From IMG/VR virus record IMGVR_UViG_3300032030_000047, positions 1 to 64,000 of that record: a DNA stretch of 64,000 nucleotides. One strand, given 5' to 3'. Numbering within the stretch: position 1 is the stretch's first letter; every line of letters starts with the position of its first letter. Of the stretch, positions 2,305 to 35,001 are shown in pieces. The stretch is from a virus (Duplodnaviria; Caudoviricetes). Under the pieces are notes generated by a model that worked only from the letters and a program-made list of their open reading frames with translations, had not been told where the DNA came from and ran no database searches. A program made the translations under genes and the position numbers.

Positions 2305-3120
2305 TTAGAATTGAATTACTTCAATTTCTTCAACTTCATCATTTTTTAATTCAAACCCCTGCGCCTGCATCGTTAATATATTTAAAACAAATGCTCTTCC
2401 TGTAAAAGCGGCGCCAGTATCCATATCTAATCGTCCAGTACTCAATTTAATAGGTACGGCTTTATCACAAGATTTACAATCTGCATACTCGTGCAAATAT
2501 GGCGTGGGTGTATGTCCAAAAACTACTGTGCGTCCTAATTTCCAATCATTATCAAAGCTAGTACGACTCCAAAGTAAATATTCGGCATCGTATTCATCTA
2601 CTGGCTGGGAAGAATATTCTTTTTCTGCAACACGCGTAAATGAGTTGTAGCCGCCACCCGAATGGCAAAAATCTAATTTTCCATAACTAAAAGTATAAGG
2701 AAGTTTTTCTAGTTGCTCTACAATATCCATAGGCATACCATCCATAATCCAATCTGTAAGTGTAGACATTCCTCCATTATACAAACTAGTCTGAATAGCT
2801 TCATATCTATAATCAAAACCGCGTGTACAACTTAAAAAATGATGCGCTTCTTCACGTGTAGGCGGGGTATAAGGATGATATTCTTGTTTTAATTCACGCG
2901 CAGCGGCGCAAAACATATCTTCATGATTTCCTTTCAAATAGCCAACTTGCGGATCAGCAAGAAGCTCCTTCATAATACGATATCCATCTTCTCCACGATC
3001 ACAAGCATCGCCGCCGAAAATTATACTACATTCAGGATCCTGTGTCTTACAATAATTCATAATAGCATCAAATAATGGACGACAGCCGTGAATGTCTGTA
3101 AAGAAAAATATATCGTGCAT
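2305..3120 (-). CDS. Calcineurin-like metallophosphoesterase (Ser/Thr phosphatase-like)
   Basis: DIHG, GDACDRG and GNHE motifs. Confidence 0.85.
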   Translation of the reverse strand: MHDIFFFTDIHGCRPLFDAIMNYCKTQDPECSIIFGGDACDRGEDGYRIMKELLADPQVGYLKGNHEDMFCAAARELKQEYHPYTPPTREEAHHFLSCTRGFDYRYEAIQTSLYNGGMSTLTDWIMDGMPMDIVEQLEKLPYTFSYGKLDFCHSGGGYNSFTRVAEKEYSSQPVDEYDAEYLLWSRTSFDNDWKLGRTVVFGHTPTPYLHEYADCKSCDKAVPIKLSTGRLDMDTGAAFTGRAFVLNILTMQAQGFELKNDEVEEIEVIQF

Positions 3121-3731: not shown

Positions 3732-5105
3732 TTACTCCTGTGCGATAGCTTCCTGCGCTTCTTCAATATCAGGAGCATCGGCTTCTTCTTTATAAATCCC
3801 TTCTAGAATTTTAAAACTGATGTTTTTCATCTTATATACTTCAAACTTTGAACGGTTCATAATACGTGCAACTACACCTTCGCGCACATGGGACTTTCCA
3901 ATGGGGTCAGGTCCATCATAATACTGTTCAATCTTACGCACTACATATTCGCCGGGATTTACATCCTCAGGAATTACAAAGCGCTCGAATTCCATTACAT
4001 GATTTACGCCCCACTTATCACAATAGGTCTGAATCTGATCAGGAGACAACTCAATTTGCTCGCCATCTTCATTTACCATAGTGATTCGATATACATATAC
4101 TTCACAACAAGGTTTAATTTCAGTAGTCCATCCATCTTCATCTACTACACAAGAAAATGCGCGTTCATACTGTCCATCCTGCTGGCATCCATAGGAGAAA
4201 GTAGTAATATCACCATACATCTTGCTAAACTCTTTATCTTTAATCTTAGAGTTAGCTACTTGTCCCATAATGGGTGCGCCATTCGGCCCTTGGAATCCCA
4301 CGATTTCGTAATAGACTACCATTCCCTTAGGAAGCTTACCTTCAAACTTCGCAGCCATAGCATGGCGGAAATCATCGCTTTCATAGAAGCCACCTTGCCG
4401 CTTACCATCAAGAACAACACGCCGAGTCCCAGTTACATAACCATACTCATAATAATCCTTACCATGTCGCCGCAGAAGCTTATCCAACCAAGTACGCTTC
4501 GTATGAAGCAGAGGAAGATGGCCCGTTCTACCTGAGGTTCCATGCATCTTAAGCGTAAGCTGAATTTCATCACCATTGTGGAACTTATCCAGATTATAGG
4601 CAACCTGCTCAGTATCTACATGTTCAAAGAAAGTCGGCGCATAGTTTACTTTAGCCTTCTTAATCTTTTCACCATGCCATTCTCCACGAGGATTACACTT
4701 AGGAATATACTTTTTACAGATTTCCTCACCATTGAGAACAGTAATCTGATCGCCCGGCTTCAGTTCACTAATGTTCGTGAACTCGGACAGACAAGTAATA
4801 TTCAGATATAGTCCATTAGACTTTTCTCCACGCAACTTAATAGCTTTTACATTGCGCTTATCAGGATCCATATAACCGCCAATGTTATTGCCGTTTTCAT
4901 CCTTCTTACGCACGAGGTTATTAATTTCGCAGAACTTTTCAGACAGCTGCAAATCGCAAGGGAAATATACACCAATATCCCCAATATGAGTATCAAGACC
5001 GACGATTACATCCTCTTCAAATACACGTAGAATCTGAAGGCGGTCAGCATTAGAGTGCGGCCGCAGATCTTTTACTTGTACAACAAAACCACAATGTTCG
5101 CTCAT
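3732..5105 (-). CDS. ATP-dependent RNA ligase with N-terminal OB/tRNA-binding-like domain (DRB0094/Rnl5-like)
   Basis: Motif I KMHGTS, motif IV EGVV, motif V YKMKN; N-terminal HSNADRL OB-type segment. Confidence 0.85.
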   Translation of the reverse strand: MSEHCGFVVQVKDLRPHSNADRLQILRVFEEDVIVGLDTHIGDIGVYFPCDLQLSEKFCEINNLVRKKDENGNNIGGYMDPDKRNVKAIKLRGEKSNGLYLNITCLSEFTNISELKPGDQITVLNGEEICKKYIPKCNPRGEWHGEKIKKAKVNYAPTFFEHVDTEQVAYNLDKFHNGDEIQLTLKMHGTSGRTGHLPLLHTKRTWLDKLLRRHGKDYYEYGYVTGTRRVVLDGKRQGGFYESDDFRHAMAAKFEGKLPKGMVVYYEIVGFQGPNGAPIMGQVANSKIKDKEFSKMYGDITTFSYGCQQDGQYERAFSCVVDEDGWTTEIKPCCEVYVYRITMVNEDGEQIELSPDQIQTYCDKWGVNHVMEFERFVIPEDVNPGEYVVRKIEQYYDGPDPIGKSHVREGVVARIMNRSKFEVYKMKNISFKILEGIYKEEADAPDIEEAQEAIAQE

Positions 5106-8785: not shown

Positions 8786-9547
8786 TTATAAAATGTATTT
8801 AATATAATAATGCATTAATTCATATTGCATTGATTCAATTAGTTGCAGTCCTTCTGTTTCAATTGCTTGCTGGCTAGCTGTTTTTTTAAACTCATTGCGG
8901 CAATCGTCTAAGAGATTAGCAATATTTTCACAGCCATCATTATAATATGCAGTATTAGATTCTAGCGTATCTCTTTTAGCATATAAAGCTTCTTGATAAT
9001 TAAGAGGTAATAGTTTAAGTAATTGAGATGCGCTAGTAAAATTCAAAAAGTTATTTTTCATACTATATAAACGTAAAGCATGTGAATAACGTTTTCCAGC
9101 GGGCATATTACGCTTAGTAAGCTGATGCGCCATTCCGGCCATTGCGTATAGCATATGAGAATAATTACAATGTACCATTTTATTTAAGATATATTCATTG
9201 TTTAAATATTTTTCCAAAATAGCGGTATATTTAGGTTCATAATATTTATAAGTTCCAACAAAGCATTCAACACTATTTGGAGATGTTTTCTTAAGAAGAT
9301 TAAGCGCAAGACGAATATCTTTATACATACACTTGCCATCTTCGACTTCAAATTCACCGCTATATGGCTCGCGCGCGGTTGATAAATCTTCAATAGTAGG
9401 AAAAACAAATGTAAAAGTATCAATATCGCTATTAGTATTATCTAAACAATAATTTTGACTACCAATTAAGACAGTCATTACTACTTCATATCCTTTATCT
9501 TTGACCCATTGATGGTGCCTTTTAACTGCTTCTATAATATCCATCAT
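8786..9547 (-). CDS. Pol-beta-superfamily nucleotidyltransferase (PF10127/RlaP-like)
   Basis: GSQNY...SDID motif. Confidence 0.75.
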   Translation of the reverse strand: MMDIIEAVKRHHQWVKDKGYEVVMTVLIGSQNYCLDNTNSDIDTFTFVFPTIEDLSTAREPYSGEFEVEDGKCMYKDIRLALNLLKKTSPNSVECFVGTYKYYEPKYTAILEKYLNNEYILNKMVHCNYSHMLYAMAGMAHQLTKRNMPAGKRYSHALRLYSMKNNFLNFTSASQLLKLLPLNYQEALYAKRDTLESNTAYYNDGCENIANLLDDCRNEFKKTASQQAIETEGLQLIESMQYELMHYYIKYIL

Positions 9548-11179: not shown

Positions 11180-11590
11180 TTATATCATAATTTCAGAGGA
11201 AGTCAAATGTTTAAGTTCTTCAATAAAATCCTCATATTTCTTCAAATAATTAGAATCAATTTTAATGATTTCATAGCTATCAGCATAATCGCCACCATCA
11301 TGCTCAATAGAACCATACCATCCTGGGCCAGTATATTTTTCCCAATTTAGAATGTTTTGTTCCCATTCGGTATAATACAAATAATCCCAATCTTCTTTAC
11401 ATGTAACATTAAAAATTCTCATCCAAGTTTCATCATCAGGAAGGGAAATACCACTTTCTGCCACATAACGTGTACCAGCCAGCGCAACTGCATCATGTCT
11501 GATTGCACTAGCCTTATCATAATGATGAGTTCCATCTATAGATACATAAACTGGCCTAGAATTAATTACTGATTCATATTTAATCTGCAT
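11180..11590 (-). CDS. Hypothetical protein
   Basis: ORF track. Confidence 0.6.
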   Translation of the reverse strand: MQIKYESVINSRPVYVSIDGTHHYDKASAIRHDAVALAGTRYVAESGISLPDDETWMRIFNVTCKEDWDYLYYTEWEQNILNWEKYTGPGWYGSIEHDGGDYADSYEIIKIDSNYLKKYEDFIEELKHLTSSEIMI

Positions 11591-12143
11591 CTATTTCCCT
11601 CTTATTCCATATATCTTCTTTAATCTGATCCAAGTTTACTGGATAGCAATTATGAGCATCCATTTCTACATGATAACACATTTTATCCCAATCTGCCCAC
11701 TTATCTTTGGTATGGCTGTGGCCACAAAGATTAGCTACTTTGCGCCAAGCCTCGTTATTTCCGGTCAAAGTGGGATAATGCGATAGGTAGAAACTCCATT
11801 TTCCACTCTTAATAACAGTAGCATAAGAATCCCTTTCTGTGCCGAGAAGCTGGATTTTGGGGCACGCGGGTAGGATTTTTCCTATCTTTCCTAAAGTATC
11901 GTGATTCCCGAGAATCCATATTTGGTGTCCCTTAAGCCGCTGCAGATAAGGAATAGCAGTATCAACATCACTAAGAGCAATATCACCTAGATTATAAACA
12001 AAATCTTCGTCTCTTACAACCGAGTTCCAACGTTCCACGATAGCTTCGCACATTTCTTCTGTAGAAAAGAAGCCACGCGGTTCGTATAGGAACGGTTTGT
12101 TATGCATTAAATGCAAATCAGAAGTAAACCAAATATCTCCCAT
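11580..12143 (-). CDS. Metallophosphoesterase (possible RNA 2',3'-phosphatase)
   Basis: SDLH, NLGD, GNHD, SHYP, GHSH motifs; adjacent to the kinase. Confidence 0.85.
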   Translation of the reverse strand: MGDIWFTSDLHLMHNKPFLYEPRGFFSTEEMCEAIVERWNSVVRDEDFVYNLGDIALSDVDTAIPYLQRLKGHQIWILGNHDTLGKIGKILPACPKIQLLGTERDSYATVIKSGKWSFYLSHYPTLTGNNEAWRKVANLCGHSHTKDKWADWDKMCYHVEMDAHNCYPVNLDQIKEDIWNKREIDAD

Positions 12144-12144
12144 T

Positions 12145-12672
12145 TTATGACTCCTTCCAGTAGGGATCCATCATAAAGGAGAAATCTCCTTTCTTATCTC
12201 CTACTTCAATAATTTCCGTGGCGCGGCGATCTTCTTCAAGAGTCGGCGCCTTAAAGGAGCGGAACATGCCACGAATTACATCAGGGCCTACATAAGCCAA
12301 GCCCTCGCGCGTTGCGTCCCGCTCACAACATTCAGTATACAAGGTATAGAATACGACATACTTAATTTCATAATCTACGCCAATGCGGTCAAGCGCATTG
12401 GTAAGCTTCTTGCGCGAAAACTCATTAAGATGAGTAGCATCTGCAATTACATCAAAACCATAAACAAGAGTCTGCGCCAAGGTGCCTACAAACTTTTTGA
12501 AAACTTCCTTTTCATGGGCAAAATAATCTTCGCCTTCTTTAAGCATAGAAAATCGAATCTCATCACGAGAAACATAACGAATATCCTGCTCACTATGCTC
12601 TGCAATGAAAGCATCGCTCCAAGTGCTTTTGCCACAAGCGCTCGGGCCGCAAAGAATATATAAAATCGCCAT
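12145..12672 (-). CDS. P-loop polynucleotide kinase (T4 Pnk kinase-like, AAA_33)
   Basis: GPSACGKST, SRDEIR, DATH. Confidence 0.85.
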   Translation of the reverse strand: MAILYILCGPSACGKSTWSDAFIAEHSEQDIRYVSRDEIRFSMLKEGEDYFAHEKEVFKKFVGTLAQTLVYGFDVIADATHLNEFSRKKLTNALDRIGVDYEIKYVVFYTLYTECCERDATREGLAYVGPDVIRGMFRSFKAPTLEEDRRATEIIEVGDKKGDFSFMMDPYWKES

Positions 12673-13532
12673 TAGTAATTCCTCCTAAGAATAAACTGTG
12701 CATGAGTATGTAATGTAGGAATAAAAAATAGATTTTTCCAAGCCTCTGTGTAATATGGAAGTTGATAATGTGTCTCAAAAATGGGAGTATAATCACCAAC
12801 TAAGTCAATGAGATCTTTTAACATCCAACTAAAATAATCCTCTTTCATTTCTTGTTCCCAGCCGTTATCTTTCCATTGATATTTCATAAGAAAATGAATA
12901 AAATTGCGCCAGATTGCAATAGTACTATGTTCTTTTTCAAATTCTTTAATATATTTTGGATCAATATTAAGCTGGCTAATGATATGCTCACGCTGAGTAG
13001 TAGTTACAATATTTTTATTATAATCAAAGTACATATCTCGAATAGTAATGTACTTCGGCTGCAATTCTTCAATAAGGCGCCGGATAGTTTCTTTACCGTC
13101 AGGACTAGAGGAAAAAACCTCATGTAACACAGAGGAAAAGTTAATGCAGATTTCATCAGGCCGATAATGCTGTTTTGCCATAGCAATCATATCTTCAAAA
13201 CTATCATGTCGATCTGCAAAAGTTCTTTCTTTATGAAAGAAGAAGGTATTTTTATCCGCAGGAGACTCAAGTTTAGTCCAAGCCTCAACAATCAGATCAT
13301 CGTTAATGTCATAACCGTAGAAAGTAGTATTGGGAAACAGCGGCGCGAGCATACGAATCATAGCACCATCGGCGCATCCGAAGTCAATAACAAGCTTCGC
13401 GCCGATGATTTTATCCATAAAGAAAGCTTTATCCCATACCGACTTACTCATTTCTTCAGTATAAATATCAAAATTCATTTTTACGCTCCTTCGTATATTC
13501 TTTCGGCATTTTGCCATATAGGATAAACTCAA
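12672..13532 (-). CDS. Class I SAM-dependent methyltransferase
   Basis: VIDFGCADG, YGYD, SSVLHEV; start could be MNFDI. Confidence 0.8.
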   Translation of the reverse strand: MSLSYMAKCRKNIRRSVKMNFDIYTEEMSKSVWDKAFFMDKIIGAKLVIDFGCADGAMIRMLAPLFPNTTFYGYDINDDLIVEAWTKLESPADKNTFFFHKERTFADRHDSFEDMIAMAKQHYRPDEICINFSSVLHEVFSSSPDGKETIRRLIEELQPKYITIRDMYFDYNKNIVTTTQREHIISQLNIDPKYIKEFEKEHSTIAIWRNFIHFLMKYQWKDNGWEQEMKEDYFSWMLKDLIDLVGDYTPIFETHYQLPYYTEAWKNLFFIPTLHTHAQFILRRNY

Positions 13533-15982: not shown

Positions 15983-16096
15983 CAGTCCCTGTTGGAATCG
16001 GACCAACACGTGTGGAGTCATGGTGCCAGATTGGAGAGTTGAACTCCAAATACCCTATCTGACAAGTCCACTGCGCTACCATTACGCTAAGGGACT
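15983..16096 (-). tRNA. tRNA-Gln(UUG) interrupted by a 43-nt insert (16021-16063) between positions 34 and 35
   Basis: AGTCCCT/AGGGACT-G acceptor, D arm, GTGGA-CTT|insert|TGAC-TCCAC, T arm GTTGG-TCCGATT-CCAAC. Confidence 0.8.
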
Positions 16097-19920: not shown

Positions 19921-20163
19921 ATATAGTAGATTTGGGATTCCACCCCGTGGTCTACCACACCACACCTCTGCTATCTTGATGAGCTAAAGCGACACGTCTA
20001 CGCATGAGGCACTAACATAAGGCGACAAACATTTTACGCAGTTTTCCCATACCTGCAACCTTAACCTACCTGGGTCTAACGTTATACACCGGTGTTGTGT
20101 CACGGATTTCTTTCCACCCGGCTTAGTCCTACGGCTATTCTTTGGAAGGGGAATAGCACCCAG

Positions 20164-20237
20164 AGCCATCGAAGAGACTTGAACTCCTGACCCACACACT
20201 TCTTTATGTGCCACTCTACCAACTGAGCTACGACGGC
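20164..20237 (-). tRNA. tRNA body with unreadable anticodon loop (undetermined or pseudo)
   Basis: Intact acceptor, D and T arms; loop TAAAGAAG is 8 nt and lacks U33. Confidence 0.65.
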
Positions 20238-20277: not shown

Positions 20278-20817
20278 TTAGGGCCATTCTCCAAGGGGCA
20301 TTCCAAGTCCTGCGCGCTCAACATTGGTATTATAGAATACACCTTCAGTTGCAGGCCCAGTCAGAAGCTCACTGGCAATTGTCTCATATAGAGTACTAAT
20401 TACTCCATGGCAATCATTTAGATTATCAGCCGCGAACTGTACAACACAGTTGTTGAATACAACATAAGTAGTACCAATCCACTGATATCCTTCTTCCGCG
20501 GGGCATACAGAATATGCATAGGCAGGATTCTTGGCAAAAGCAGTATCAAACAGCTCAACCTTACTCTTAAAGGTGCGGTTGCTTGGAACGCCATCAATCA
20601 TGATCTTTAGTGTTACATTACCAAAACCTACTTCATCTGGTAGAATCTGGCATAGGGCTGCAACCTTGTCTCCGTTGTTACAGGAGAGAACAACAGAAGG
20701 ATGTTCACCACTAAAGTCAACATTGAAAGCAATCTGCGGATCGCCATCAAATAGAGCTTCTAGCTTCCTTACTAGAATAGTCCATGGGGGAAGAATCTTT
20801 AGTCTTGGTTCATTCAT
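20278..20817 (-). CDS. Conserved hypothetical phage protein
   Basis: 179-aa ORF with GGAGG RBS. Confidence 0.75.
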   Translation of the reverse strand: MNEPRLKILPPWTILVRKLEALFDGDPQIAFNVDFSGEHPSVVLSCNNGDKVAALCQILPDEVGFGNVTLKIMIDGVPSNRTFKSKVELFDTAFAKNPAYAYSVCPAEEGYQWIGTTYVVFNNCVVQFAADNLNDCHGVISTLYETIASELLTGPATEGVFYNTNVERAGLGMPLGEWP

Positions 20818-20859: not shown

Positions 20860-21401
20860 CCTCCAGCCGACGATTCGAACGCCGATTTTGTGGTCACGTC
20901 TCCAATACTTATCCTTCTACCTCCATTAAAATTTTTTCTACTTCATAATCTGAAGCATAGTGTACTATAGAGGATGCATTGTTCTTTGGCGCTACAAAAC
21001 GTAAAGTTTTTCGTGTACTACATTCAGTAATGGGAATGAGATACCCTTGTCCATTCCAATTGGTATAAAAATAATCAATTTCAGTATCTAAATATTTTCG
21101 ATGATTATCATATTGTCCTTGTTTAACATTTCGAGTAGAGCGACATTCAAATGTTACTCCCGAAATATCTTCATCAATTGGATGGCAACTTTTACATTGA
21201 ATACGAATAAACTTACCGTTTATATCTGCTACAAAATCATATCTACAAGGAGAAATTGGTTGACTTACTACAATACCTAATTTAGTAAAATCTAATTGGC
21301 ATTGTAATTCAGTTATTGTGCCTTTTTGTATTGTATCCATATTTTTCCTAGGATAAGTTTAGTGACGTAGCCACACGTTCTGTCCCTTAGACTAGCCGGA
21401 G
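20860..21401 (-). tRNA. tRNA-Arg(ACG) split by a 470-nt insert (20896-21365) that carries an endonuclease ORF
   Basis: CTCCGGC/GCTGGAG acceptor, D arm GGACAGAAC as in Arg(UCU), TGTGG-CTACG|insert|GA-CCACA, CGGCG-TTCGAAT-CGTCG. Confidence 0.78.
20909..21340 (-). mobile_element. PD-(D/E)XK homing endonuclease (I-Ssp6803I/PDDEXK_5-like) inside the tRNA-Arg insert
   Basis: KGTITE...RYDFV...IQCKS...IDYF pattern. Confidence 0.8.
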
Positions 21402-24463: not shown

Positions 24464-24562
24464 TGTGTATTCCTCCTTTTATTTTAAAATAAGGACGCCA
24501 ATAATGGCGTCCATACATCGCAGCCAAAAGGCGGTAGGTTCCAAGCTCCGCCTAATGGAAAG

Positions 24563-24646
24563 TCCGGGTGGTGGGATTCGAACCCACAAGGAGCTTCGCT
24601 CCGACAGATTTTAAGTCTGTTGCCTGGGCCGTTCGGCTACACCCGG
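24563..24646 (-). tRNA. tRNA-Leu(UAA), long variable arm
   Basis: Canonical type II cloverleaf. Confidence 0.9.
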
Positions 24647-24740
24647 ATAAAATACAGGATTCGTTCGCCACACGTCTATGGTCAAGCAGAGTATTAAGTG
24701 AAGTAGCTTTCTCATCACTCCTGTAAATTTGATAGTATAA

Positions 24741-24799
24741 AACCCCGTATGCGAACTATCATTGCGCTCTAGAAACGCCTGCTTTGCTGTCTCGGGGAT
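24741..24799 (-). ncRNA. Mini Y-RNA-like element
   Basis: CCCCG/CGGGG stem followed by AGACAGCAA. Confidence 0.5.
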
Positions 24800-24809
24800 C
24801 AATTTACGG

Positions 24810-25345
24810 ATTCTTCATCCGGGATTAATTTATGGGATATTCATCCCATTCTTGATTTCGGGGAATCTCCCCTGCGGCCAAGAGAAGCCTTATCTACGGC
24901 GCGAGAGGCGTGCTAGGTTCTTGACCTAGCGGGTTGCGCTTCGGCGTAGGGGTGGACCAAGCCTTTCAACTAGCCCAAACGGTAGTTTTTCAGTCATACT
25001 GGACATCCTGTAATAGAAAATGCAACTAGTATTCAGCACCATTTCTCGATGCTGGCATCTCCTAATAGGAAGCACGTACTCATTAAGCACATACCACGAC
25101 TAGTTCCGACATTTATAACGCGCGCGTCTCAGTCGTCAGCAATCGCGCTAGATGAATGGTCTATTTTTTACTTGCTACTGCCATCACCATCGAAAGCGCA
25201 AGCTATATATTTATCTAACCCCTATAGTGGGTGGTTTTCGCGTTTTATATACCGATTCGGAAAACATAGAGACCGGTTGTCCGTTTCATATGGTAGAATA
25301 CATCGACCGGTACGGGCGTCCGGTCGGAACGGCTCATACTACCAA
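24810..25345 (-). ncRNA. Candidate large structured ncRNA (~535 nt)
   Basis: No credible ORF; at least 7 hairpins, e.g. CGACCGG/CCGGTCG, CAGCATC/GGTGCTG, GCTAGGT/ACCTAGC, ATGGGAT/ATCCCAT. Confidence 0.55.
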
Positions 25346-25351
25346 AAATAC

Positions 25352-25413
25352 TAGGCACATTAAAAAAACTTTTAATAGCAAGTTATTCCTCATAGGTTTG
25401 CTGCGTGTGCCTA
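25352..25413 (-). ncRNA. Mini Y-RNA-like element
   Basis: TAGGCAC/GTGCCTA stem followed by ACGCAGCAA. Confidence 0.55.
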
Positions 25414-25417
25414 TAAC

Positions 25418-25478
25418 ATGACACCTTATATTTTATCAGAATATATGTAAATGATTATAAAATTGCTGTCGGTGTCAT
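25418..25478 (-). ncRNA. Mini Y-RNA-like element
   Basis: ATGACACC/GGTGTCAT stem followed by GACAGCAA. Confidence 0.55.
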
Positions 25479-25479
25479 T

Positions 25480-25730
25480 TTAATTACCGAGGCCCTCGCA
25501 TATACGTAATATGTGGATACCTCGTGCCTCCTGTACCTTACAGGTCGGTCTGTCTATTCTGTATACATGCTATTTTAGTATCACTCTTTTGGCATAGCTG
25601 CCTCACCACGGCTGTCGTCGCTCACGAGACCTGCGTCCGTAGATAGTATGGGCGTACCATTGCTATCTATTACCACAGCGCCGGACCTCAACCGGCCAGT
25701 CATATCCTGTCAATTCAGGCTTTATGTGGT
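25480..25730 (-). ncRNA. Candidate structured ncRNA (~250 nt)
   Basis: Stems ACCACA/TGTGGT, TAGATAG/CTATCTA, CCTGTA/TACAGG, CGAGG/CCTCG. Confidence 0.45.
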
Positions 25731-25734
25731 TGAA

Positions 25735-25809
25735 TGGTACCCTATCCCGGGGATGATCCGGGCCTTCGTGCTTGAAGGGCACGCGACTTAACCGATTGTC
25801 CAATAGGGC
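25735..25809 (-). tRNA. tRNA-Glu(UUC), C33 and atypical T loop
   Basis: CGTGC-CCTTCAA-GCACG; T loop ATCATCC; CCA. Confidence 0.75.
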
Positions 25810-25901: not shown

Positions 25902-26019
25902 CGGGAGATAGAGGAGTTGAACCTCTCTAGCGCGGTTAATTGTCTGATATAGGGCCTGCCCCTATTATATCTCTTTGGTATCAGGCCAGCCGCGTGCTAA
26001 TCCGATTAGCGAATCTCCC
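25902..26019 (-). tRNA. tRNA-Asn(GUU) interrupted by a 47-nt insert (25940-25986) between positions 34 and 35
   Basis: GGGAGAT/ATCTCCC-G acceptor, CGCGG-CTG|insert|TTAA-CCGCG, AGAGG-TTCAACT-CCTCT. Confidence 0.8.
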
Positions 26020-26070: not shown

Positions 26071-26676
26071 TTAAATTTTTTCCCATTCTTCATCGGAATA
26101 AGAATTAATTTCTTTTTTTGTCCTTGGCAAATTCATACTGTCACACCATTTACGAATACTGTTATCTTCTACTCCAAATTGTTTTCCAATTTGAGTAAAA
26201 GGCATAGTTCGAATTAATTGCTTTAATTCTTCTCGTGAAGGTCTTTCACAAGCTCTTCTAGCCTTTGCTGCACAACTTGGACAGCGAATCGCGGCAGAAT
26301 CTATTTGACAATGGCAATCAATACAATAATTTAATTTAGCAGTCATTTTATCATTACGTTCATTAATTAATCTTTGTGCTAATTCATTATTGAACACATG
26401 CTCCGTTGGAGCATCATAATAACCGCTATGCACTCCTCTATGACAATTCGCGCATAATAAAAAACATTTTTTTACTTCATTTAAGTCAGTTTCAATATCA
26501 TGACAAGTTCCTCTTGAAGATATTCCATAATCCTTTTTAGTCGGGTCTTCGTGATGAAATTCTAATGCGTCTGCGAATAAATCAAAACCGCATATCTGAC
26601 ATTTTCCACCTAAAACCTAAATAAGATTTTGTTTTCTTCTTCTACGATAATTACTTACATCTTCTGCTCTACTCAT
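26071..26676 (-). CDS. Free-standing HNH endonuclease with C-terminal DNA-binding segment (201 aa, code 15)
   Basis: GGAGG RBS; MSRAED...LI(Q)VLGGKCQICG...EFHH...LCANCHRGVH. Confidence 0.8.
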
Positions 26677-28901: not shown

Positions 28902-29825
28902 TTATCTATGTCGACGTTTTACTTCTTCTATTAGACTTTGCTTTAAATATATACGATATAATTTATTCCACACCATTTCATAAAATTCGGGCTTTACTAA
29001 ATAGTAACATACTATACGTAGCCATACTTCAGGTGTATTAGTGCGTCCTGAAATTTTAAAATACCGAATCCCCTTATCAGAAAGCTCTCGCACTCTGTCT
29101 AAAGTAACCATATGTTCGCGCGCGAAAATACCTGCAACACATTCATCTGCAGAAGGTGAAGAACCAGCAGAATCGCAATGAAGAACTTGCTCTTCTTCTG
29201 TAAGAGGCAAATTTTTATACATTTTACTTAACTGTAAATAGTGTTTCGATCTTTCAGGACAATGACTACGACAAGGCTCTGCACAAACAACTTCAATATT
29301 ATTCAAATGTTTCAATTGTTTAATATATTCGTCATCATTATTACAGTTGTAATTCATGACATAGATATTGTTTTTAGTTAATTCATTAACTTTGTCTATA
29401 TCAGTAATATTTAAAGTAGTAGAATAAATAATATCTAATTGTGGATATTCTCTTTCCAAATACTGCTTTAGTATCGGAGAAAACAAGGTTACAGCATCGT
29501 GCGGGCGCATATAAGTATGTAAAAAGTTATTACAATCTGGGTCTAAGACATCATGTTCATCTAAAAGCAAATTAGTACATACATGTCGTATTTGCATAGG
29601 TGTTGTATTAATCCATTGCATAATATCTTGAATTGGCGTAGTATTAATAATATTTTGCGCCTCTCGACCACCGTTCCACATTAGATATGGTGGAAAATCA
29701 TATACGTTGTCCATTACATGATCTGCGATAAATTGCTCTGGATATTGTTGTTTATATTCATATAATAATTTTACCAAAGGAAATTGCCGAATATATCCAG
29801 GAATTGAAAATAATTTATCAGGCAT
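28902..29825 (-). CDS. U32-peptidase-like TIM-barrel protein
   Basis: C-terminal YFKISGR motif, Cys cluster CAEPCRSHC...C. Confidence 0.55.
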   Translation of the reverse strand: MPDKLFSIPGYIRQFPLVKLLYEYKQQYPEQFIADHVMDNVYDFPPYLMWNGGREAQNIINTTPIQDIMQWINTTPMQIRHVCTNLLLDEHDVLDPDCNNFLHTYMRPHDAVTLFSPILKQYLEREYPQLDIIYSTTLNITDIDKVNELTKNNIYVMNYNCNNDDEYIKQLKHLNNIEVVCAEPCRSHCPERSKHYLQLSKMYKNLPLTEEEQVLHCDSAGSSPSADECVAGIFAREHMVTLDRVRELSDKGIRYFKISGRTNTPEVWLRIVCYYLVKPEFYEMVWNKLYRIYLKQSLIEEVKRRHR

Positions 29826-30270
29826 TGTGTGTCTCCAATATTTTTTTTAATTCAGATAAATCTCTCTATTTTTGTATAAAATAAGATAATATTTCACGCG
29901 TAACCAAGAATAATAATTCTTGTAATAAGAATGAATTTGCTTCCTTAGGCAAATTATCATATATATTTAAGACTATATCGACATGACGCGGTTTTCGCGC
30001 CAAAGCACGCAAAAGAAAGTATAATTCTAAATACTATATAGCTATTGGATCTGTAATATAATATAATTCTGCATACTGTTTTGTAAACTGGACAATATAA
30101 TCTCTTAATCGTACATAATCAGTAGTATCTAGATTGCTTTCATAAAATAAATTTCCCCAGTTAATATATGACGGGGCTATCCAAGAATTTAAGTATGAGG
30201 ACATTGTATCAACAGAAGGTACTTTAAATTGCTTCATAGCATAAAGTGCCCTTAATTTGCTAACATTCAT
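29818..30270 (-). CDS. Hypothetical protein (150 aa, code 15)
   Basis: Track ORF 30034-30270 continues through two TAG to a TGA that overlaps the next ATG. Confidence 0.65.
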
Positions 30271-30776
30271 TCAGATATATATTTTTCAGCGAGAGTCATA
30301 CGATCATATTCTTGCTCTTGCTCTAGTTCAGACAGTAATTGATCAATTTCTTCATCGTCCCCAATACTGTGAATTATTAAAGCTAATACATATCTATATT
30401 TAATTTCCGTTTTTAATTGTGTTATTTCTGTTTTATCCGATTCAACTTGAAAAGCTTCTTTTAATTGCGGCAAATATTCTATATTAATACCTTGAATTTG
30501 AAAGATGAATAAAGAAAAGAAATGACATAATACTGTGCGTTCTCCTTCAGTATAGTATTCTTCATATACTTCATCTACAATAGGCTTAAAATAATTATAA
30601 TCGCGCGCATAATCTATTAAATATGCCTCATTACGAATTAAACCAATTACACTAAAAATAGCTCCCATTGGATATTTAAAACGTGGAATATAATTTTTTA
30701 TTAGCTATATTTCATCTTCATTAGGATTTCTTTTAGCATTAAAAATCCTTAATAAGCGTAACTCTGTAACATCCAT
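30267..30776 (-). CDS. Hypothetical protein (169 aa, code 15)
   Basis: GGAGG RBS and ATG 30776, one TAG, joins track ORF. Confidence 0.65.
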
Positions 30777-30788
30777 TTAATTTCCTCC

Positions 30789-31502
30789 TTAACCATTCGG
30801 ATTGTAACCCCAAGCAAATGAACATCCGCCATTAAATGAAGTACACCAACCATTGCAATTAGTTGAACATGTGTCACCGCATCCCTGACAAGCATTACTG
30901 CAGCCTGTACATCCTTTGCAACTACCGCTACAACTGCCACTACAAGAACCAGTGCATGTATTACTGCAACCTTGACAGCTACCTTGACAGCCACCACTAC
31001 AAGAACCAGTACAAGTACCACTACATCCTTTACAAGTGCCAGTGCATGTATTACTGCAACCTTGGCATCCGCCACTACAAGAACCAGTACAAGAACCGGT
31101 ACAACTCCCACTACATGTACCAGTACAACTGGTACAGCCACGACAAGCACCTGTACATGTACTATAACAAAGCCCAGTGCATGAACTATTACAATCGGTC
31201 GAATTGGCCGTTAAGGAATAATTCTCATTAGATGTCAATCTAGTAGCCGCGGCTTGAATAGCATATACTAAACTGCCTTGATTAGCTGTTAGTCCAGTTG
31301 GGCTAATACGATTAATATTACCTACTGTTTCATTAAAATGAGAAATTTTAACAGGACTTCCTGCTGCCATAGTTTCGCTCCAGCCGGTATTATAAGCAGC
31401 AAGTGATCCGTTAAAGCGTCTGCGATACATTTCATTATTAACTCGTGTTTTTAAAGCTTGCATATCACTTGCTGTTAAACTATTTCCAGCTGTTAACGCC
31501 AT
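30789..31502 (-). CDS. CXXX-repeat radical SAM target protein (33 Cys) with ~100-aa N-terminal domain
   Basis: C-x3 and C-x2 periodicity with Ser/Thr/Gly-rich spacers; directly downstream of a radical SAM/SPASM gene. Confidence 0.85.
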   Translation of the reverse strand: MALTAGNSLTASDMQALKTRVNNEMYRRRFNGSLAAYNTGWSETMAAGSPVKISHFNETVGNINRISPTGLTANQGSLVYAIQAAATRLTSNENYSLTANSTDCNSSCTGLCYSTCTGACRGCTSCTGTCSGSCTGSCTGSCSGGCQGCSNTCTGTCKGCSGTCTGSCSGGCQGSCQGCSNTCTGSCSGSCSGSCKGCTGCSNACQGCGDTCSTNCNGWCTSFNGGCSFAWGYNPNG

Positions 31503-31508
31503 GACTTA

Positions 31509-32819
31509 TCACTCCTCGGAATGTTCAAAATCCGCCAACGTGAGCAACATATCATACTCGTCGTCGTCAATTAGATATTTTGCTGTTGTACGGTCTAAAT
31601 AAACAGGCATTCGTTTTTCTGAATGTAACTGTCTAAAAAATTTATTTAAATAATAACTATTAGCTAAAGAGCGAGCGCGTTGCATCCAACAAAGACCTGT
31701 ATCTCGTTTGTCTAAAATACCTCCAAACTTTTGGTAATTCCAAGCTGCACACCAAGAACAACCAGAAGCAACGGAACAATTAAAACATTCATCTGTAGAT
31801 TGAGTACGTCGATTAATTGCTTTCATTTTATACCAATAATCTTTTTCTTTTTCTGTCTGATAAATTCCATGATCTACATTGCCTATAATAATAGGATCTA
31901 CTTCTGTGCCTAAAGAACTAGGCATATAGCGTAGACATGGATATGCATTTCCATCAGGGTCAAAAGCCAACATATCTCCAGTACCACCGCACCAGTTAGT
32001 TAAATTACTACTGAGAAGTGGCTTGCCATAAAATTCTCCAAACATACTCGAAAAAACACCTTGCTTAGATAAAATTTTATCTGCAAGCTGTTTTAATTGT
32101 ATATAATATATCTTTGCTTCCTCTATGGTCCATTTACGTTCATTTATTGGATTACCAACAATAAAAGCGCATTCTTTATCAACAAAAAAATCTACTATTT
32201 CACTCAGCATAGGCAAATTTTCTGGTGAAATTGTAATTTTTGTACCAGGTACTTGGTGTCTTACTGTTCGCCAATCTTCATACGCGGCAATAGCTCTATC
32301 AAAGCTACCATTGCCATCATAATCCTTTCTACAAGCATCATGTACTTGTTTTGGGCCATCAATAGTAATGCAGAGACTTAAGAAACTTAAGAATTCATCT
32401 ACATACTTTTGAAATGCATCTGTAAAATAGAGTAAGCCATTGGTAGAAATGTTAAATCGAAAGTTTGTTGTCCACGGATGATCTAACTCTATACATTTAT
32501 TGAGAAAATATCTACTGCCATACTGAATAACGTCCATATTCATCAGAGGTTCGCCGCCGATAAATTCAATAATAATACCTTTAGTATGATGATTAATTAA
32601 AGTATTTGGATCGTTTTTCGCATAGGCTTCAAATAGTAAGTCCATTCCTTTTTTCATGACTTCTTTTGTCATGAATTTATGTCCTTTATTAATTTGATAA
32701 CAGTAGGAGCAATTTAAACAACAATCATCAGTTACTTGAAACGTTATAGTCGGACAATTGACTTTAGGGTCTGCTGACCTATAACGTTTCATGATATAAT
32801 TATGAAACTCGTGAAACAT
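31509..32819 (-). CDS. Radical SAM/SPASM maturase, CXXX-repeat-target type (copy 2)
   Basis: CCLNCSYC (CxxxCxxC), GGEP, SPASM WCGG...YPC...CFNC...CSWC...C. Confidence 0.9.
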   Translation of the reverse strand: MFHEFHNYIMKRYRSADPKVNCPTITFQVTDDCCLNCSYCYQINKGHKFMTKEVMKKGMDLLFEAYAKNDPNTLINHHTKGIIIEFIGGEPLMNMDVIQYGSRYFLNKCIELDHPWTTNFRFNISTNGLLYFTDAFQKYVDEFLSFLSLCITIDGPKQVHDACRKDYDGNGSFDRAIAAYEDWRTVRHQVPGTKITISPENLPMLSEIVDFFVDKECAFIVGNPINERKWTIEEAKIYYIQLKQLADKILSKQGVFSSMFGEFYGKPLLSSNLTNWCGGTGDMLAFDPDGNAYPCLRYMPSSLGTEVDPIIIGNVDHGIYQTEKEKDYWYKMKAINRRTQSTDECFNCSVASGCSWCAAWNYQKFGGILDKRDTGLCWMQRARSLANSYYLNKFFRQLHSEKRMPVYLDRTTAKYLIDDDEYDMLLTLADFEHSEE

Positions 32820-33112
32820 TAATTATAAAACTCCAATGTATGCTGCGCGAAGTTAAAACTAAAATTCATCCCTGCTCCCTGAGGACGATATTTATTAGCA
32901 ATTTCATTCTTAAGTTTTTCCAAACGAATAGAAAGTTCAATTGCGGCATCCCATTTCTTATCCAGATAAGAAATTTTCAGGCCATCTACTCCTTCATTAT
33001 AATTATACAGTAGATAACTTAATACGCCCATATAACCATTGTACTCGTCAAAAAGTATCTCTACCTTTTCAATGTCCTCGCTAGAAACATCTACAACTAC
33101 TCTGTCTTCCAT
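32819..33112 (-). CDS. Small CXXX-system accessory-like protein (paralog of 34998-35270)
   Basis: True start MEDRVV; shares YxxYMxxLxYL and DKKW...xELE...KY(K/R)PxG with paralog. Confidence 0.7.
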   Translation of the reverse strand: MEDRVVVDVSSEDIEKVEILFDEYNGYMGVLSYLLYNYNEGVDGLKISYLDKKWDAAIELSIRLEKLKNEIANKYRPQGAGMNFSFNFAQHTLEFYN

Positions 33113-33145
33113 ATCCTTTAATCTCCTTTTATATAAAATAATAAG

Positions 33146-33233
33146 CAGCCCCTGAAAGATTCGAACTTTCATAACCTCGGCAGAGGATATAACGGTTTTA
33201 GAGACCGGCGTCTTGCCATTAGACGAAGGGGCT
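33146..33233 (-). tRNA. Amber-decoding tRNA (anticodon CUA), long variable arm
   Basis: AGCCCCT/AGGGGCT-G, CCGGT-CTCTAAA-ACCGT, V arm CCTC-TGCC-GAGG, GAAAG-TTCGAAT-CTTTC. Confidence 0.88.
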
Positions 33234-33234
33234 A

Positions 33235-33261
33235 TAAAAGGGCTGATTCTCGGCTCAGCCC
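33235..33261 (-). terminator. Terminator-like hairpin just 5' of the CUA tRNA
   Basis: GGGCTGA-GCCGAGAA-TCAGCCC-TTTT. Confidence 0.6.
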
Positions 33262-33271
33262 AGAGCCGTCA

Positions 33272-33616
33272 TCAGACCATGAAAATCTTATCGAAAATAT
33301 CAAACAAAGTAGGAATATCCTCGGGATTGGAGCTAGAAAAATGATACGTATGATACTTATTTACAAATGCATTGAGCGCATCCTTATAAGCATTCTGCGC
33401 CTTAACCATCTCCTTACGCGCGGCTTCGACCTTATCAGCCATTGCCTTGCGCTCGGCTGCTTCCTTTTCTTTCTTCTCCTTCTCTTCCCGTAGAGCCTTT
33501 TCCTTTTGAATCTTTTCCAGATTTTCCTGTTCTTTTAGTTCAAATTCAGCACGATTTGCTTCCTCTACTGAATTATAGAACTTACCGGTGCGATCGCTAA
33601 ATACCTTAATAGCCAT
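33272..33616 (-). CDS. Coiled-coil hypothetical protein
   Basis: E/K/A-rich; follows promoter 33681. Confidence 0.7.
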   Translation of the reverse strand: MAIKVFSDRTGKFYNSVEEANRAEFELKEQENLEKIQKEKALREEKEKKEKEAAERKAMADKVEAARKEMVKAQNAYKDALNAFVNKYHTYHFSSSNPEDIPTLFDIFDKIFMV

Positions 33617-33705
33617 ATTACTACCTCCCTATGTAGTAAAAAATATATTTAAGCAAGTTCCTTTCCTTGCTTATACATATATTATACACTGAATTTTGAA
33701 AAAAG

Positions 33706-35001
33706 TCAAGTTTTAGATAGAAGCAATAATTTATTATATTCTTTCAATGTAATCAAATGCATTGCAATATCAACAGGTAAATACATCTTTTTACGTTTGG
33801 CCATATTATGTTTTCTATAATATTTATTCCAATAATAAACGCCAGCAAGAGCTTCTGCACGGTGCATCCAACATATGTTGGTACTACGTTTATTGTATGT
33901 GCCAAATTCATTATAGTTTTCAGCTGAGCACCAGGCGCAACCTGACGCGACAGGACAATCTAAACATTCCTGTGTTGATTGTGACTGTCGAGTAACTTTT
34001 TTCATATCATCATATATAGCCTTATATTCTGGAGTGTTATATATACCATGGACATTGCCGATTACTATAGGTTTACGCTCTGGACTTAGTGAACTTGCCA
34101 TATAACGTAAACAAGGATACGCCAGTCCTTGTGGGTCAAAAGCTAACATTGCAGATGTACCGCCACAATAGTTATTAGTCTCACTTTCTGGAACTGGTTC
34201 TCCTTTGAAGTCAGAAAATAAGGAACTTTCTGCGCCTTCTACTTCAAGCAATCTATCTGCTAACTTAATTAGTAATTTATAATATAACTATGCTTCTTCT
34301 TCTGTCCATTTATGCTCAAATATAGGATTAGCATGAATTGTTGTACAACCCTTAGATAAAAAGAAATCAAATATTTCTCCGATTTTAGGTAGGTTTTCAG
34401 GCGCAATTGTAACTTTAGTATCTGGTATATTATGCTTCTTTACAAGAAACCAATCATTCCACGCGGCCATAGCTCTATCGAAACTGCCAGTACCGCCCAA
34501 ATCTACTCGACAAAGGTCGTGTATATCTTTGGGCCCGTCTATTGTAACATTCATACTGATAAGGCTATGATATTTATCTAAGAATGCTTGTACCTTTGGC
34601 TCAAAATAGAGTAAACCATTTGTACTGATGGAAATACGGAAATTGGTAAGCCAAATATGATCGCGTTCACAGCATTGTTGGATAAAATATTCTACAATAT
34701 AATCCATCACATCTACATTCATAAACGGTTCGCCGCCGATCATATCCAGAATGATACCATATGTATGTTTATTGATGACCATATTCTCGTCATTCTCTTC
34801 ATACAATTTGAATAGTAAGTCAACTGCGTCCTTAGCCACTTCTTTACTCATCATCGCATGACCCTTATGCGTCTGATAACAGTAAGAACATTTTAAACAA
34901 CAATCATCTGTCACCTAAAAAGTGATATTGCGGCATTCTGCCTTTGGATCCTCAAAAGAATATATAGATCTTACTTCCTCTGAATAGTCATGACTTTTCA
35001 T
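33706..35001 (-). CDS. Radical SAM/SPASM maturase, CXXX-repeat-target type (copy 1; 431 aa, 2 in-frame TAG)
   Basis: MKSHDY...ITF(TAG)VTDDCCLKCSYC; fragments 34288-34914 and 33706-34251 join and align end to end with copy 2. Confidence 0.9.

Follow-up and report, generated by a model that had tools for sequence, protein, structure and literature searches.

An interrupted tRNA-Asn gene in a rumen phage

We identified a 47-nt insert in the anticodon loop of a tRNA-Asn(GUU) gene of a tailed phage (Caudoviricetes), within the first 64 kb of the 87.6-kb IMG/VR virus record IMGVR_UViG_3300032030_000047, which is about 48% complete. This 64,000-nt stretch, the whole of the DNA analysed, is referred to below as the window. 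As a discrete insertion/deletion, the insert distinguishes alleles of a tRNA gene that is otherwise intact and conserved, and it is very probably a mobile, intron-type insertion. A fuller account, which we hold to be about as likely as not, is that it is a mobile mini-intron mimicking a tRNA, with a coaxial acceptor-like and T-arm-like minihelix, which would be removed by proteins and linked to an adjacent HNH endonuclease gene.

The interrupted gene is complete and occupies 118 nt of the minus strand (26019 to 25902). Read on that strand, exon 1 (25987-26019) contains the acceptor 5' strand, the D arm, the anticodon stem 5' strand and C32 U33 G34; the insert (25986-25940) lies exactly between G34 and U35; and exon 2 (25902-25939) contains U35 U36 A37 A38, the anticodon stem 3' strand, the variable loop, the T arm, the acceptor 3' strand and the discriminator G. 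The acceptor stem is of 7 bp, the anticodon stem reads CGCGG/CCGCG and the T loop UUCAACU, and 54 nt separate the two anticodon stem strands of the unspliced tRNA. Positions 25902-26019 were missed by ARAGORN in its default mode and by the Rfam tRNA model; with introns allowed, ARAGORN placed a gene at c[25901,26019], in which it recognised an intron of 47 nt.

The insert opens with the 5' strand of an outer helix (GCCUGAU, 25980-25986), the first base of which is the 5' splice site. A 14-nt unpaired linker (25966-25979) follows, near-identical to that in the insert of contig L410, and then an inner, T-arm-like hairpin with the perfect 5-bp stem AUAGG/CCUAU and the 7-nt loop GGCAGGC (25949-25965), and finally the 7-nt 3' strand of the outer helix and a 2-nt tail (AUCAGAC-AA, 25940-25948). 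The 7-bp outer helix, with one C-A mismatch, begins at the first base of the insert and stacks on the inner hairpin, which has a closing G-C pair. The tail can be read in two ways, as AA after the mismatched 7-bp helix or as ACAA after a 5-bp helix, because the 3' strand carries a 2-nt deletion relative to L410; by homology the segment is AUCAG + ACAA, and ACAA is the terminal tetranucleotide of three full-length relatives. In the minimum-free-energy fold (-39 kcal/mol, z = -2.9) the cloverleaf is retained together with the insert hairpin, and the geometry of the insert was reproduced in 4 of 200,000 shuffles of its letters.

A preliminary description, made from the letters of the window, had proposed a tRNA-Asn(GUU) with a 47-nt insert at 34/35, beginning with G and laid out as a 7-bp helix with one C-A mismatch, a 5-bp helix and a 7-nt loop. 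The presence of a gene is borne out by the intron-allowing ARAGORN call, its identity and the insert position by the uninterrupted alleles described below, and the layout is as described in the minimum-free-energy fold. The same description had left an alternative register, Asn(AUU), which the uninterrupted alleles now settle in favour of GUU.

Uninterrupted alleles and conservation of the insert

A gapless scan for the anticodon arm identified 55 viral contigs with uninterrupted tRNA-Asn genes, the anticodon arms of which match the exon sequence at the junction; G73, like the CUGUUAA loop a trait of bacterial tRNA-Asn, can be read directly. The uninterrupted gene of contig L325, the 5' part of which is exon 1, is identical at 71 of 71 positions to the window exons joined at G34|U35, and the uninterrupted gene of contig L312 is identical to the joined exons of a sister phage, G001 (176,887 bp, 98% complete; the window phage itself is G000). 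The insert is therefore absent from otherwise identical alleles. From sequence alone four registers were open, namely AUU, GUU, GGU (the choice of ARAGORN) and GGC. None other than GUU reproduces the CUGUUAA loop of the uninterrupted alleles, and since these natural alleles match the joined exons, the gene is tRNA-Asn(GUU) and the insert is at 34/35. On the Rfam tRNA model, which has a gathering threshold of 29, the allele without insert at L312:3922-3992 reaches 52.8 bits, and the spliced window sequence is accepted by ARAGORN with the anticodon GTT, a 7-nt loop, U33 and purine 37 being restored.

The interrupted gene is the sole tRNA-Asn of the 98%-complete G001. Between the window phage and G001 the insert is identical at 46 of 47 positions, compared with about 97% identity in the tRNA-Asn exons, 97% in the neighbouring tRNA-Glu, 90% in the upstream HNH gene and leader, and 37-74% in the spacers. 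The insert is moreover identical at all 47 positions in the ENA/Logan contigs L446 and L447, where the adjacent HNH protein is only 83% identical. Both exon alleles, the window type and the G001 type, occur with and without the insert, which means that it has been precisely gained or lost more than once, or moved by short-tract recombination.

A diverse family of minihelix inserts

We surveyed 80 loci around a clade-marker protein (window 20278-20817), together with the window and contigs L036, L163, L166 and L199, retaining candidates with the insert geometry and a spliced product accepted by ARAGORN. Pairing was a criterion of this screen, so the percentage of paired positions is circular; all Asn introns in an ARAGORN list made without the geometry filter nonetheless had the geometry. 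The survey identified 29 distinct inserts in eight tRNA species, from a clade of 130-190 kb TAG-recoded rumen phages. The hosts are tRNA-Asn (12 inserts), Gln, Leu(UAA) and Lys(UUU) (four each), Pro (two), and Ile(UAU), Thr(UGU) and Val(UAC) (one each). The inserts are of 43-91 nt, mostly 43-50 nt, and lie at 34/35 in 20 cases, 35/36 in five, 32/33 in three and 36/37 in one.

Certain features recur across this family. The first base is G in 23/29 inserts, the last four bases are N-C-N-A in 24/29 (ACCA in 14), and the pair closing the inner stem is G-C in all 29, like G53-C61 of tRNA. The remaining helix positions show three to seven base combinations each, the outer-helix sequences are highly variable, and both helices covary. 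Two classes of loop were found, a T-loop-like U(U/G)CAA type and a (G/A)GCA(G/A) type, the window loop GGCAGGC belonging to the second; GGCAG-type loops are present in seven of the 29. Excision from the first base of the helix leaves, for every insert, a 7-nt anticodon loop with U33 and purine 37 in a tRNA accepted by ARAGORN, the 3' splice site lying 1, 2 or 4 nt past the helix, depending on the member. The window insert, which starts with G and ends with ACAA, fits the N-C-N-A pattern. The inserts constitute one diverse family, so far confined to phage tRNA anticodon loops.

The window contains a second member, a 43-nt minihelix insert ending in ACCA (16021-16063) at 34/35 of a tRNA-Gln(UUG) gene (15983-16096, minus strand). 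The preliminary description had regarded the Asn and Gln inserts as unrelated in sequence and alike in position; the first view cannot be upheld, and the position is not fixed across the family. The window Asn insert is clearly homologous to Asn inserts that share stem sequences with the Gln insert: its global alignment with the L410 insert gives z = 9.2. These two have the linker in common and differ in the inner stem by two double changes, both compensatory, and the window 3' strand is 2 nt short of that of L410. Alignments with L409 (z = 4.9) and with the insert of phage G002 (z = 4.4-4.5) agree, and for all three none of 1000-2000 shuffles aligned as well. As to position, members also occur at 32/33, 35/36 and 36/37, and the body of the window tRNA-Gln recurs elsewhere with an insert at 35/36. 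The proposal that the fold of the minihelix is under selection was well founded, given the 46/47 identity of the insert between two phages with flanks of 37-90% identity, the two compensatory double changes relative to L410 and the covariation among the 29 members.

Inserts have moved between tRNA genes. The Lys insert of L414 and the Ile insert of L396 share 41/47 positions, and the window tRNA-Gln(UUG) body is found in L397 (11464-11618) with a different, 83-nt minihelix insert at 35/36. The corresponding Gln locus of G001 (153548-153692; L130:13520-13720) is occupied by another tRNA-Gln, which has no insert and directly behind which part of the window-type 3' exon survives as a remnant.

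We investigated the wider distribution of the inserts with several searches. First pattern scans found Asn, Gln and Lys genes of other phage contigs carrying the outer stem of the window Gln insert, GUCAGAU...UCUGGC-AC(C/A)A. Scans for this canonical stem across metagenome contigs and GTDB genomes returned the same few phage contigs, and no real case in bacterial or archaeal genomes. A covariance model (R1) of six members that have the canonical GUCAGAU...UCUGGC stem retrieved from 56 phage records the four known carriers and the 3' halves of ordinary tRNAs, and nothing else; the matches to tRNAs are weak, and accord with the tRNA likeness of the inserts. A looser scan for an anticodon stem with a gap gave 117 matches, which were mostly due to chance and were set aside, two being real (L033 and L036). 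In a phage GenBank collection nothing related to the region was found apart from single tRNAs. Searches for related loci gave nothing with the U32-like protein of the window as query, and five loci with its RNA ligase, none of which had family inserts.

Individual members and relatives show further elaborations. A tRNA-Ile(UAU) gene (L312:654-774) in a contig with an uninterrupted tRNA-Asn carries a minihelix insert at 34/35 (loop GGCAGCG, tail ACCA), which the Rfam tRNA model tolerates as an insertion, at 50.3 bits. Inserts in Lys and Ile tRNAs at L414:7781-7901, L396:39-160 and L371:8362-8505 have outer stems of GGGG(C/A)(U/C)U with ...CUCC and ACCA; their G1-C72, G2-C71, G3:U70 and A73-CCA constitute the alanine identity set of tRNA-Ala minihelices, and the excised RNAs might be chargeable by alanyl-tRNA synthetase. 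Finally, a marine metagenome contig (L219:7309-7365) contains a free-standing, D-armless tRNA-like element outside any tRNA, with the canonical outer stem GUCAGAU ... UCUGGC-ACCA and an anticodon-arm-like hairpin (CAU), followed by a U-run.

Association with an HNH endonuclease gene

A free-standing HNH endonuclease gene (26071-26676, minus strand; PHROG HNH families, E = 1e-21) with one in-frame TAG lies 51 nt upstream of the tRNA-Asn gene. We inspected the downstream gene at 11 loci encoding HNH homologues 63-87% identical to this protein. The homologue is followed by a tRNA-Asn with the 47-nt window-type insert in L446 and L447, with a 46-nt insert in L448-L450 and with a 50-nt insert in L452-L454; by an uninterrupted Asn-like tRNA with the altered loop CCGUUAA and a further change at position 39 in L444 and L445; and by no tRNA in L451. 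Within the survey loci, this HNH gene was found upstream of none of 78 distinct uninterrupted tRNA-Asn genes and of one of 13 distinct interrupted ones (that of G001). With six distinct interrupted genes and two loop variants entered as HNH-adjacent, the association gives Fisher p = 4e-4, and is a new finding. For the Asn-like tRNAs of L444 and L445 (2107-2200 in each), ARAGORN gives no call; they have C33 and an unusual T-loop, AGCAAAG, that resembles the (G/A)GCA(G/A) loops of many inserts.

In the common allele G34-C39 form the palindrome GTTAAC, which the insert interrupts, and the same hexamer is lacking in the loop variants of L444 and L445. By breaking conserved anticodon-arm DNA that contains GTTAAC, the insert would probably render the gene immune to the upstream HNH enzyme, and the HNH gene and the interrupted tRNA gene would then spread and persist jointly, by collaborative homing. 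Such an immunity link is quite conceivable, and would be at most part of the story.

The HNH association bears also on the purpose first suggested for the insert, that of keeping the anticodon loop of the RNA from nucleases of the colicin E5 or PrrC type until processing. Anticodon nucleases are known to attack Asn, Gln and Lys tRNAs. These tRNAs are among the hosts of the inserts, 20 of the 29 inserts lie at 34/35, and the phages invest in tRNA repair genes, as such a role would lead one to expect. Splicing, however, would leave a mature tRNA with no more protection than others have; related phages possess identical alleles that are uninterrupted; inserts occur also at the three other loop positions and in Leu, Val, Thr, Ile and Pro tRNAs; and the pattern of presence and absence, together with the HNH association, resembles that of a selfish DNA element. 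Shielding of the anticodon loop finds no support here, and we consider it very improbable. The occurrence of the HNH gene only beside interrupted or loop-variant tRNA-Asn genes suggests protection at the level of DNA more than shielding of the RNA.

Probable removal of the insert from the RNA

The insert is probably removed at the RNA level, yielding a working tRNA-Asn. Its retention, either as the casualty of a selfish element in a phage relying on the tRNA-Asn of its host or in an unspliced RNA with another role, such as a decoy for tRNA-targeting nucleases, appears improbable. Retention would agree with the lack of spliced RNA among the joints listed from assembled contigs, with the degraded mimic features of the window member (2-nt deletion, non-T-loop and ACAA tail), and with the uninterrupted alleles, which indicate that the insert is dispensable for the tRNA. 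However, the exons still match uninterrupted alleles on two backgrounds, and the insert has stayed 46/47 to 47/47 identical while its neighbours diverged by 10-60%. The restoration of a proper loop and an ARAGORN-accepted tRNA by removal of all 29 inserts would not be expected of dead genes, and the interrupted gene is the only Asn tRNA of the near-complete G001.

Because the gene appears still to be functional, its insert would be removed by proteins and not by self-splicing. With 47 nt, two helices and no Rfam match to an intron or ribozyme at E up to 1, a self-splicing element was rejected. The cores of the hammerhead, hairpin, twister and pistol ribozymes were compared with the insert by eye and rejected, in agreement with Rfam. 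A group I intron needs a P3-P8 core and a G-binding site, in about 200 nt or more, which the insert does not accommodate. A bulge-helix-bulge (BHB) intron was rejected as well, as the two 3-nt bulges flanking a 4-bp helix are lacking and the splice sites lie at the base of a helix and in a 3 x 6 internal loop. No EndA-type endonuclease (PF01974), RtcB, RNase P RNA or RNase Z-like metallo-beta-lactamase was found in five phage records, in searches for which positive controls worked.

The constant features of the family are those of the top half of a mature tRNA, with a helix that runs from the 5' splice site and usually starts with G-C, a 12-bp stack and an N-C-N-A tail. Bacterial RNase P and the tRNA 3'-end enzymes read a G at the start of the helix, a 12-bp stack and an NCCA-like tail, and minihelices of the acceptor and T arms are classic RNase P substrates. 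The ends produced by RNase P and by RNases Z and E are 3'-OH and 5'-phosphate, and need no healing before an ATP-dependent ligase seals them. Host RNase P would treat the start of the insert helix like a tRNA 5' end and cut the window RNA at its first base; a tRNA 3'-end endonuclease, RNase Z-like or RNase E-like, would cut after the N-C-N-A tail, here ACAA; and the exon ends, with 3'-OH and 5'-phosphate, would be sealed by a phage RNA ligase. Cleavage directly after an encoded CCA has been described for Thermotoga maritima RNase Z and E. coli RNase E (PMC7479834). This route of RNase P, 3'-end nuclease and ligase is the one that we favour, tentatively.

The candidate exon sealer is an ATP-dependent RNA ligase encoded at 3732-5105 (minus strand; PF09414 and PHA02142 OB fold; phrog_968, E = 2.5e-64), which has a diverged syntenic counterpart in G001 and is present in every other large record tested. 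The window additionally encodes a candidate end-healing pair (11580-12741, minus strand), conserved in G001 and G002, that consists of a Metallophos phosphoesterase (11580-12143) and a P-loop kinase (12145-12741), a second Metallophos phosphoesterase (2305-3120), and the RNA-repair-associated nucleotidyltransferase RlaP (8786-9547, minus strand; PF10127), the activity of which has been described (PMC12776372). The trio of kinase, phosphoesterase and RlaP is kept in G000, G001 and G002, and a Ro-like DUF2828 protein is also encoded in the window phage.

This repertoire would suit another mechanism, in which a dedicated endoribonuclease of phage or host recognises the minihelix and tail and makes both cuts, leaving 2',3'-cyclic phosphate and 5'-OH ends that are healed by the kinase and phosphoesterase and sealed by the ligase, in the manner of T4-type tRNA repair. 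The heal-and-seal set is complete (kinase, both Metallophos proteins, RlaP and ligase), and many of the phage proteins are without a known family. The 3' splice site moreover obeys a sequence rule (N-C-N-A in 24/29) and not a fixed distance from the helix, which fits sequence-specific recognition. Against this, no candidate nuclease was identified and no EndA-type domain was found; the variability of the outer helix argues for recognition of shape by generic tRNA enzymes; and the repair cassette has an evident separate role against host anticodon nucleases. We consider a dedicated nuclease unlikely, and nevertheless a serious rival to end-processing by RNase P and a 3'-end nuclease.

Several observations weigh against the favoured account of a tRNA-mimic mini-intron, removed by proteins and linked to the HNH gene. 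The window member is weak as a mimic: set against the features of RNase P minihelices, it has G+1, a possible G-C end pair and 11 of 12 stack pairs, but its loop, GGCAGGC, is not a T-loop and lacks U54 and A58, its tail is ACAA and not RCCA, and in its outer helix 2 nt are missing and one pair is a C-A mismatch. Covariance model R1 does not retrieve it. A 3' site at 1, 2 or 4 nt past the helix is not explained by a simple RNase Z ruler. The RNA ligase is also present in relatives with an uninterrupted tRNA-Asn, and so does not discriminate the carriers. Twelve of the 13 distinct interrupted Asn genes of the survey loci have no adjacent HNH gene, so that the HNH link cannot fully explain the introns. 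Lastly, among the 15 joints listed out of 85, none spans 25940-25986, in a comparison with assembled contigs, which are unable to show mature tRNAs.

The tRNA-Asn stretch was found in sheep, goat and bovine gut runs, metatranscriptomes included, with low coverage in RNA runs. One contig from an RNA run (X17) is about 99% identical to the window between 26250 and 25987, its match ending exactly at the last base of exon 1, and continues for a further 103 nt; it was not counted as evidence.

Comparison with known systems

RNase P minihelix model substrates and the mascRNA of MALAT1 are known cases of tRNA-like processing signals. They share with the insert family a 12-bp acceptor/T stack, G+1 and an NCCA-like 3' tail; they differ in lying at the end of an RNA or between genes, whereas the insert is nested in the anticodon loop of another tRNA, and because of this ligation is needed afterwards.

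The nearest precedents are the 'enigmatic' conserved introns that Devoto et al. (2019, PMC6784885) described in tRNAs of Lak megaphages, with a prediction that one of them encodes a tRNA. A 2026 survey noted tRNA introns that 'could encode another tRNA' in 262 alternatively coded jumbo phages (PMC13037316). Like the inserts described here, the Lak introns are short, non-self-splicing and highly conserved, lie in anticodon loops of TAG-recoded phage tRNAs, vary in presence between relatives and contain a tRNA-like module; the four introns listed in the Lak Table S6 all have an acceptor/T-arm module by the 3' splice site, with an extra 5' hairpin before it. They differ in being of 79-114 nt, with the 5' hairpin and an A-rich linker, whereas here the minihelix makes up the entire insert, its helix beginning right at the 5' splice site. 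The Lak phages are of 540 kb, compared with 130-190 kb and 38% GC for the rumen phage studied here. We found no paper giving a mechanism for such introns.

Group I introns occur in the anticodon loops of tRNA-Leu(UAA), tRNA-fMet and tRNA-Ile of bacteria and phages (e.g. Azoarcus, PMC13168695). They too are mobile, interrupt a bacterial-type anticodon loop and are sometimes associated with a homing endonuclease, but they have about 200 nt or more and a P3-P8 core, unlike the insert with its two helices and no Rfam match. BHB introns of the archaeal and eukaryal type are likewise short anticodon-loop introns, removed and ligated by proteins and found at non-canonical positions in some archaea; the insert, in contrast, forms no BHB, neither EndA nor RtcB was found in the five phage records, and the ligase is of the ATP-dependent type that joins 3'-OH and 5'-phosphate.

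Collaborative homing has been described for F-CphI and the psbA intron of cyanophage S-PM2, and for T4 mobE and I-TevIII (PMC6083498, PMC2790892). The arrangement found here is similar, in that an endonuclease gene adjoins a gene the intron of which would disrupt the target of the enzyme. It differs in that the insert is not a group I ribozyme, the HNH specificity is a prediction, and most interrupted Asn genes are without the HNH gene.

Other features of the window

All genes in the window are on the minus strand, late genes contain in-frame TAG codons, and the tRNA array extends from about 15.9 to 33.2 kb. The clade-marker protein used in the survey (179 amino acids; 20278-20817, minus strand) has no Pfam family and is 83-85% identical across otherwise diverged phages, within tRNA arrays and next to several interrupted tRNA genes. 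We considered it as a splicing candidate and rejected it, as it is a clade-wide core gene with >1000 database clusters, and hence a marker of the clade of 130-190 kb rumen phages.

We additionally identified interruptions of other tRNA genes. A tRNA-Arg(ACG) gene (20860-21401, minus strand) contains a 470-nt insert encoding a PD-(D/E)XK endonuclease (PF11645, I-Ssp6803I-type). One contig from a DNA run and one from an RNA run skip exactly 470 nt (20895 to 21366), so that insert-free alleles of this gene coexist in the samples. In the window (33145-33233) the amber-suppressor tRNA(CUA) gene has no insert, and it has one of about 173-177 nt, possibly a small group I intron, in G001 (140729-140991) and in L369, L370, L372, L382, L393 and L404. 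A U32-peptidase-like protein and two radical SAM/SPASM enzymes are encoded around the suppressor tRNA gene (28902-35001, minus strand); some members of the U32 family are tRNA or rRNA hydroxylases. A further tRNA (20163-20237, minus strand) has an 8-nt anticodon loop and the four-base anticodon AAGA according to ARAGORN, with 48.6 bits on the Rfam tRNA model.

Positions 24510-25777 are covered by RNA-run contigs at a depth of 10-40 times that of the neighbouring genes. This region holds the cow-rumen-3 RNA (24951-25095) and GC-rich unannotated sequence, and apparently represents abundant structured RNAs.

Implications for tRNA splicing in bacteria and phages

In bacteria and their viruses, self-splicing ribozymes are considered to be the sole means of removing tRNA introns. 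The insert has 47 nt and cannot self-splice, its ends imitate those of a tRNA, and the gene around it is conserved and apparently works, which implies that proteins catalyse tRNA splicing in a bacterial system. Such a route would probably reuse recognition of the RNase P type and an RNA repair ligase. The table of the family, with 29 inserts at four loop positions in eight tRNA species, the G start, the N-C-N-A ending and tails of 1, 2 or 4 nt, constrains the mechanism.

A bolder reading, which we regard as speculative and rather unlikely, is that of a third, undescribed tRNA splicing pathway in phages of this clade, in which the ends of a miniature-tRNA intron would serve as the splice sites for ordinary end-processing nucleases and a phage ATP-dependent ligase; the released minihelices, some with the alanine identity set, might be chargeable small RNAs. 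The introns might spread through being ligated into anticodon loops that nucleases have cut, or in company with homing endonucleases the DNA target of which they disrupt. Finally, the HNH association offers a possible reason for the persistence of the introns, in shielding a conserved tRNA gene from homing endonucleases during competition between phages.

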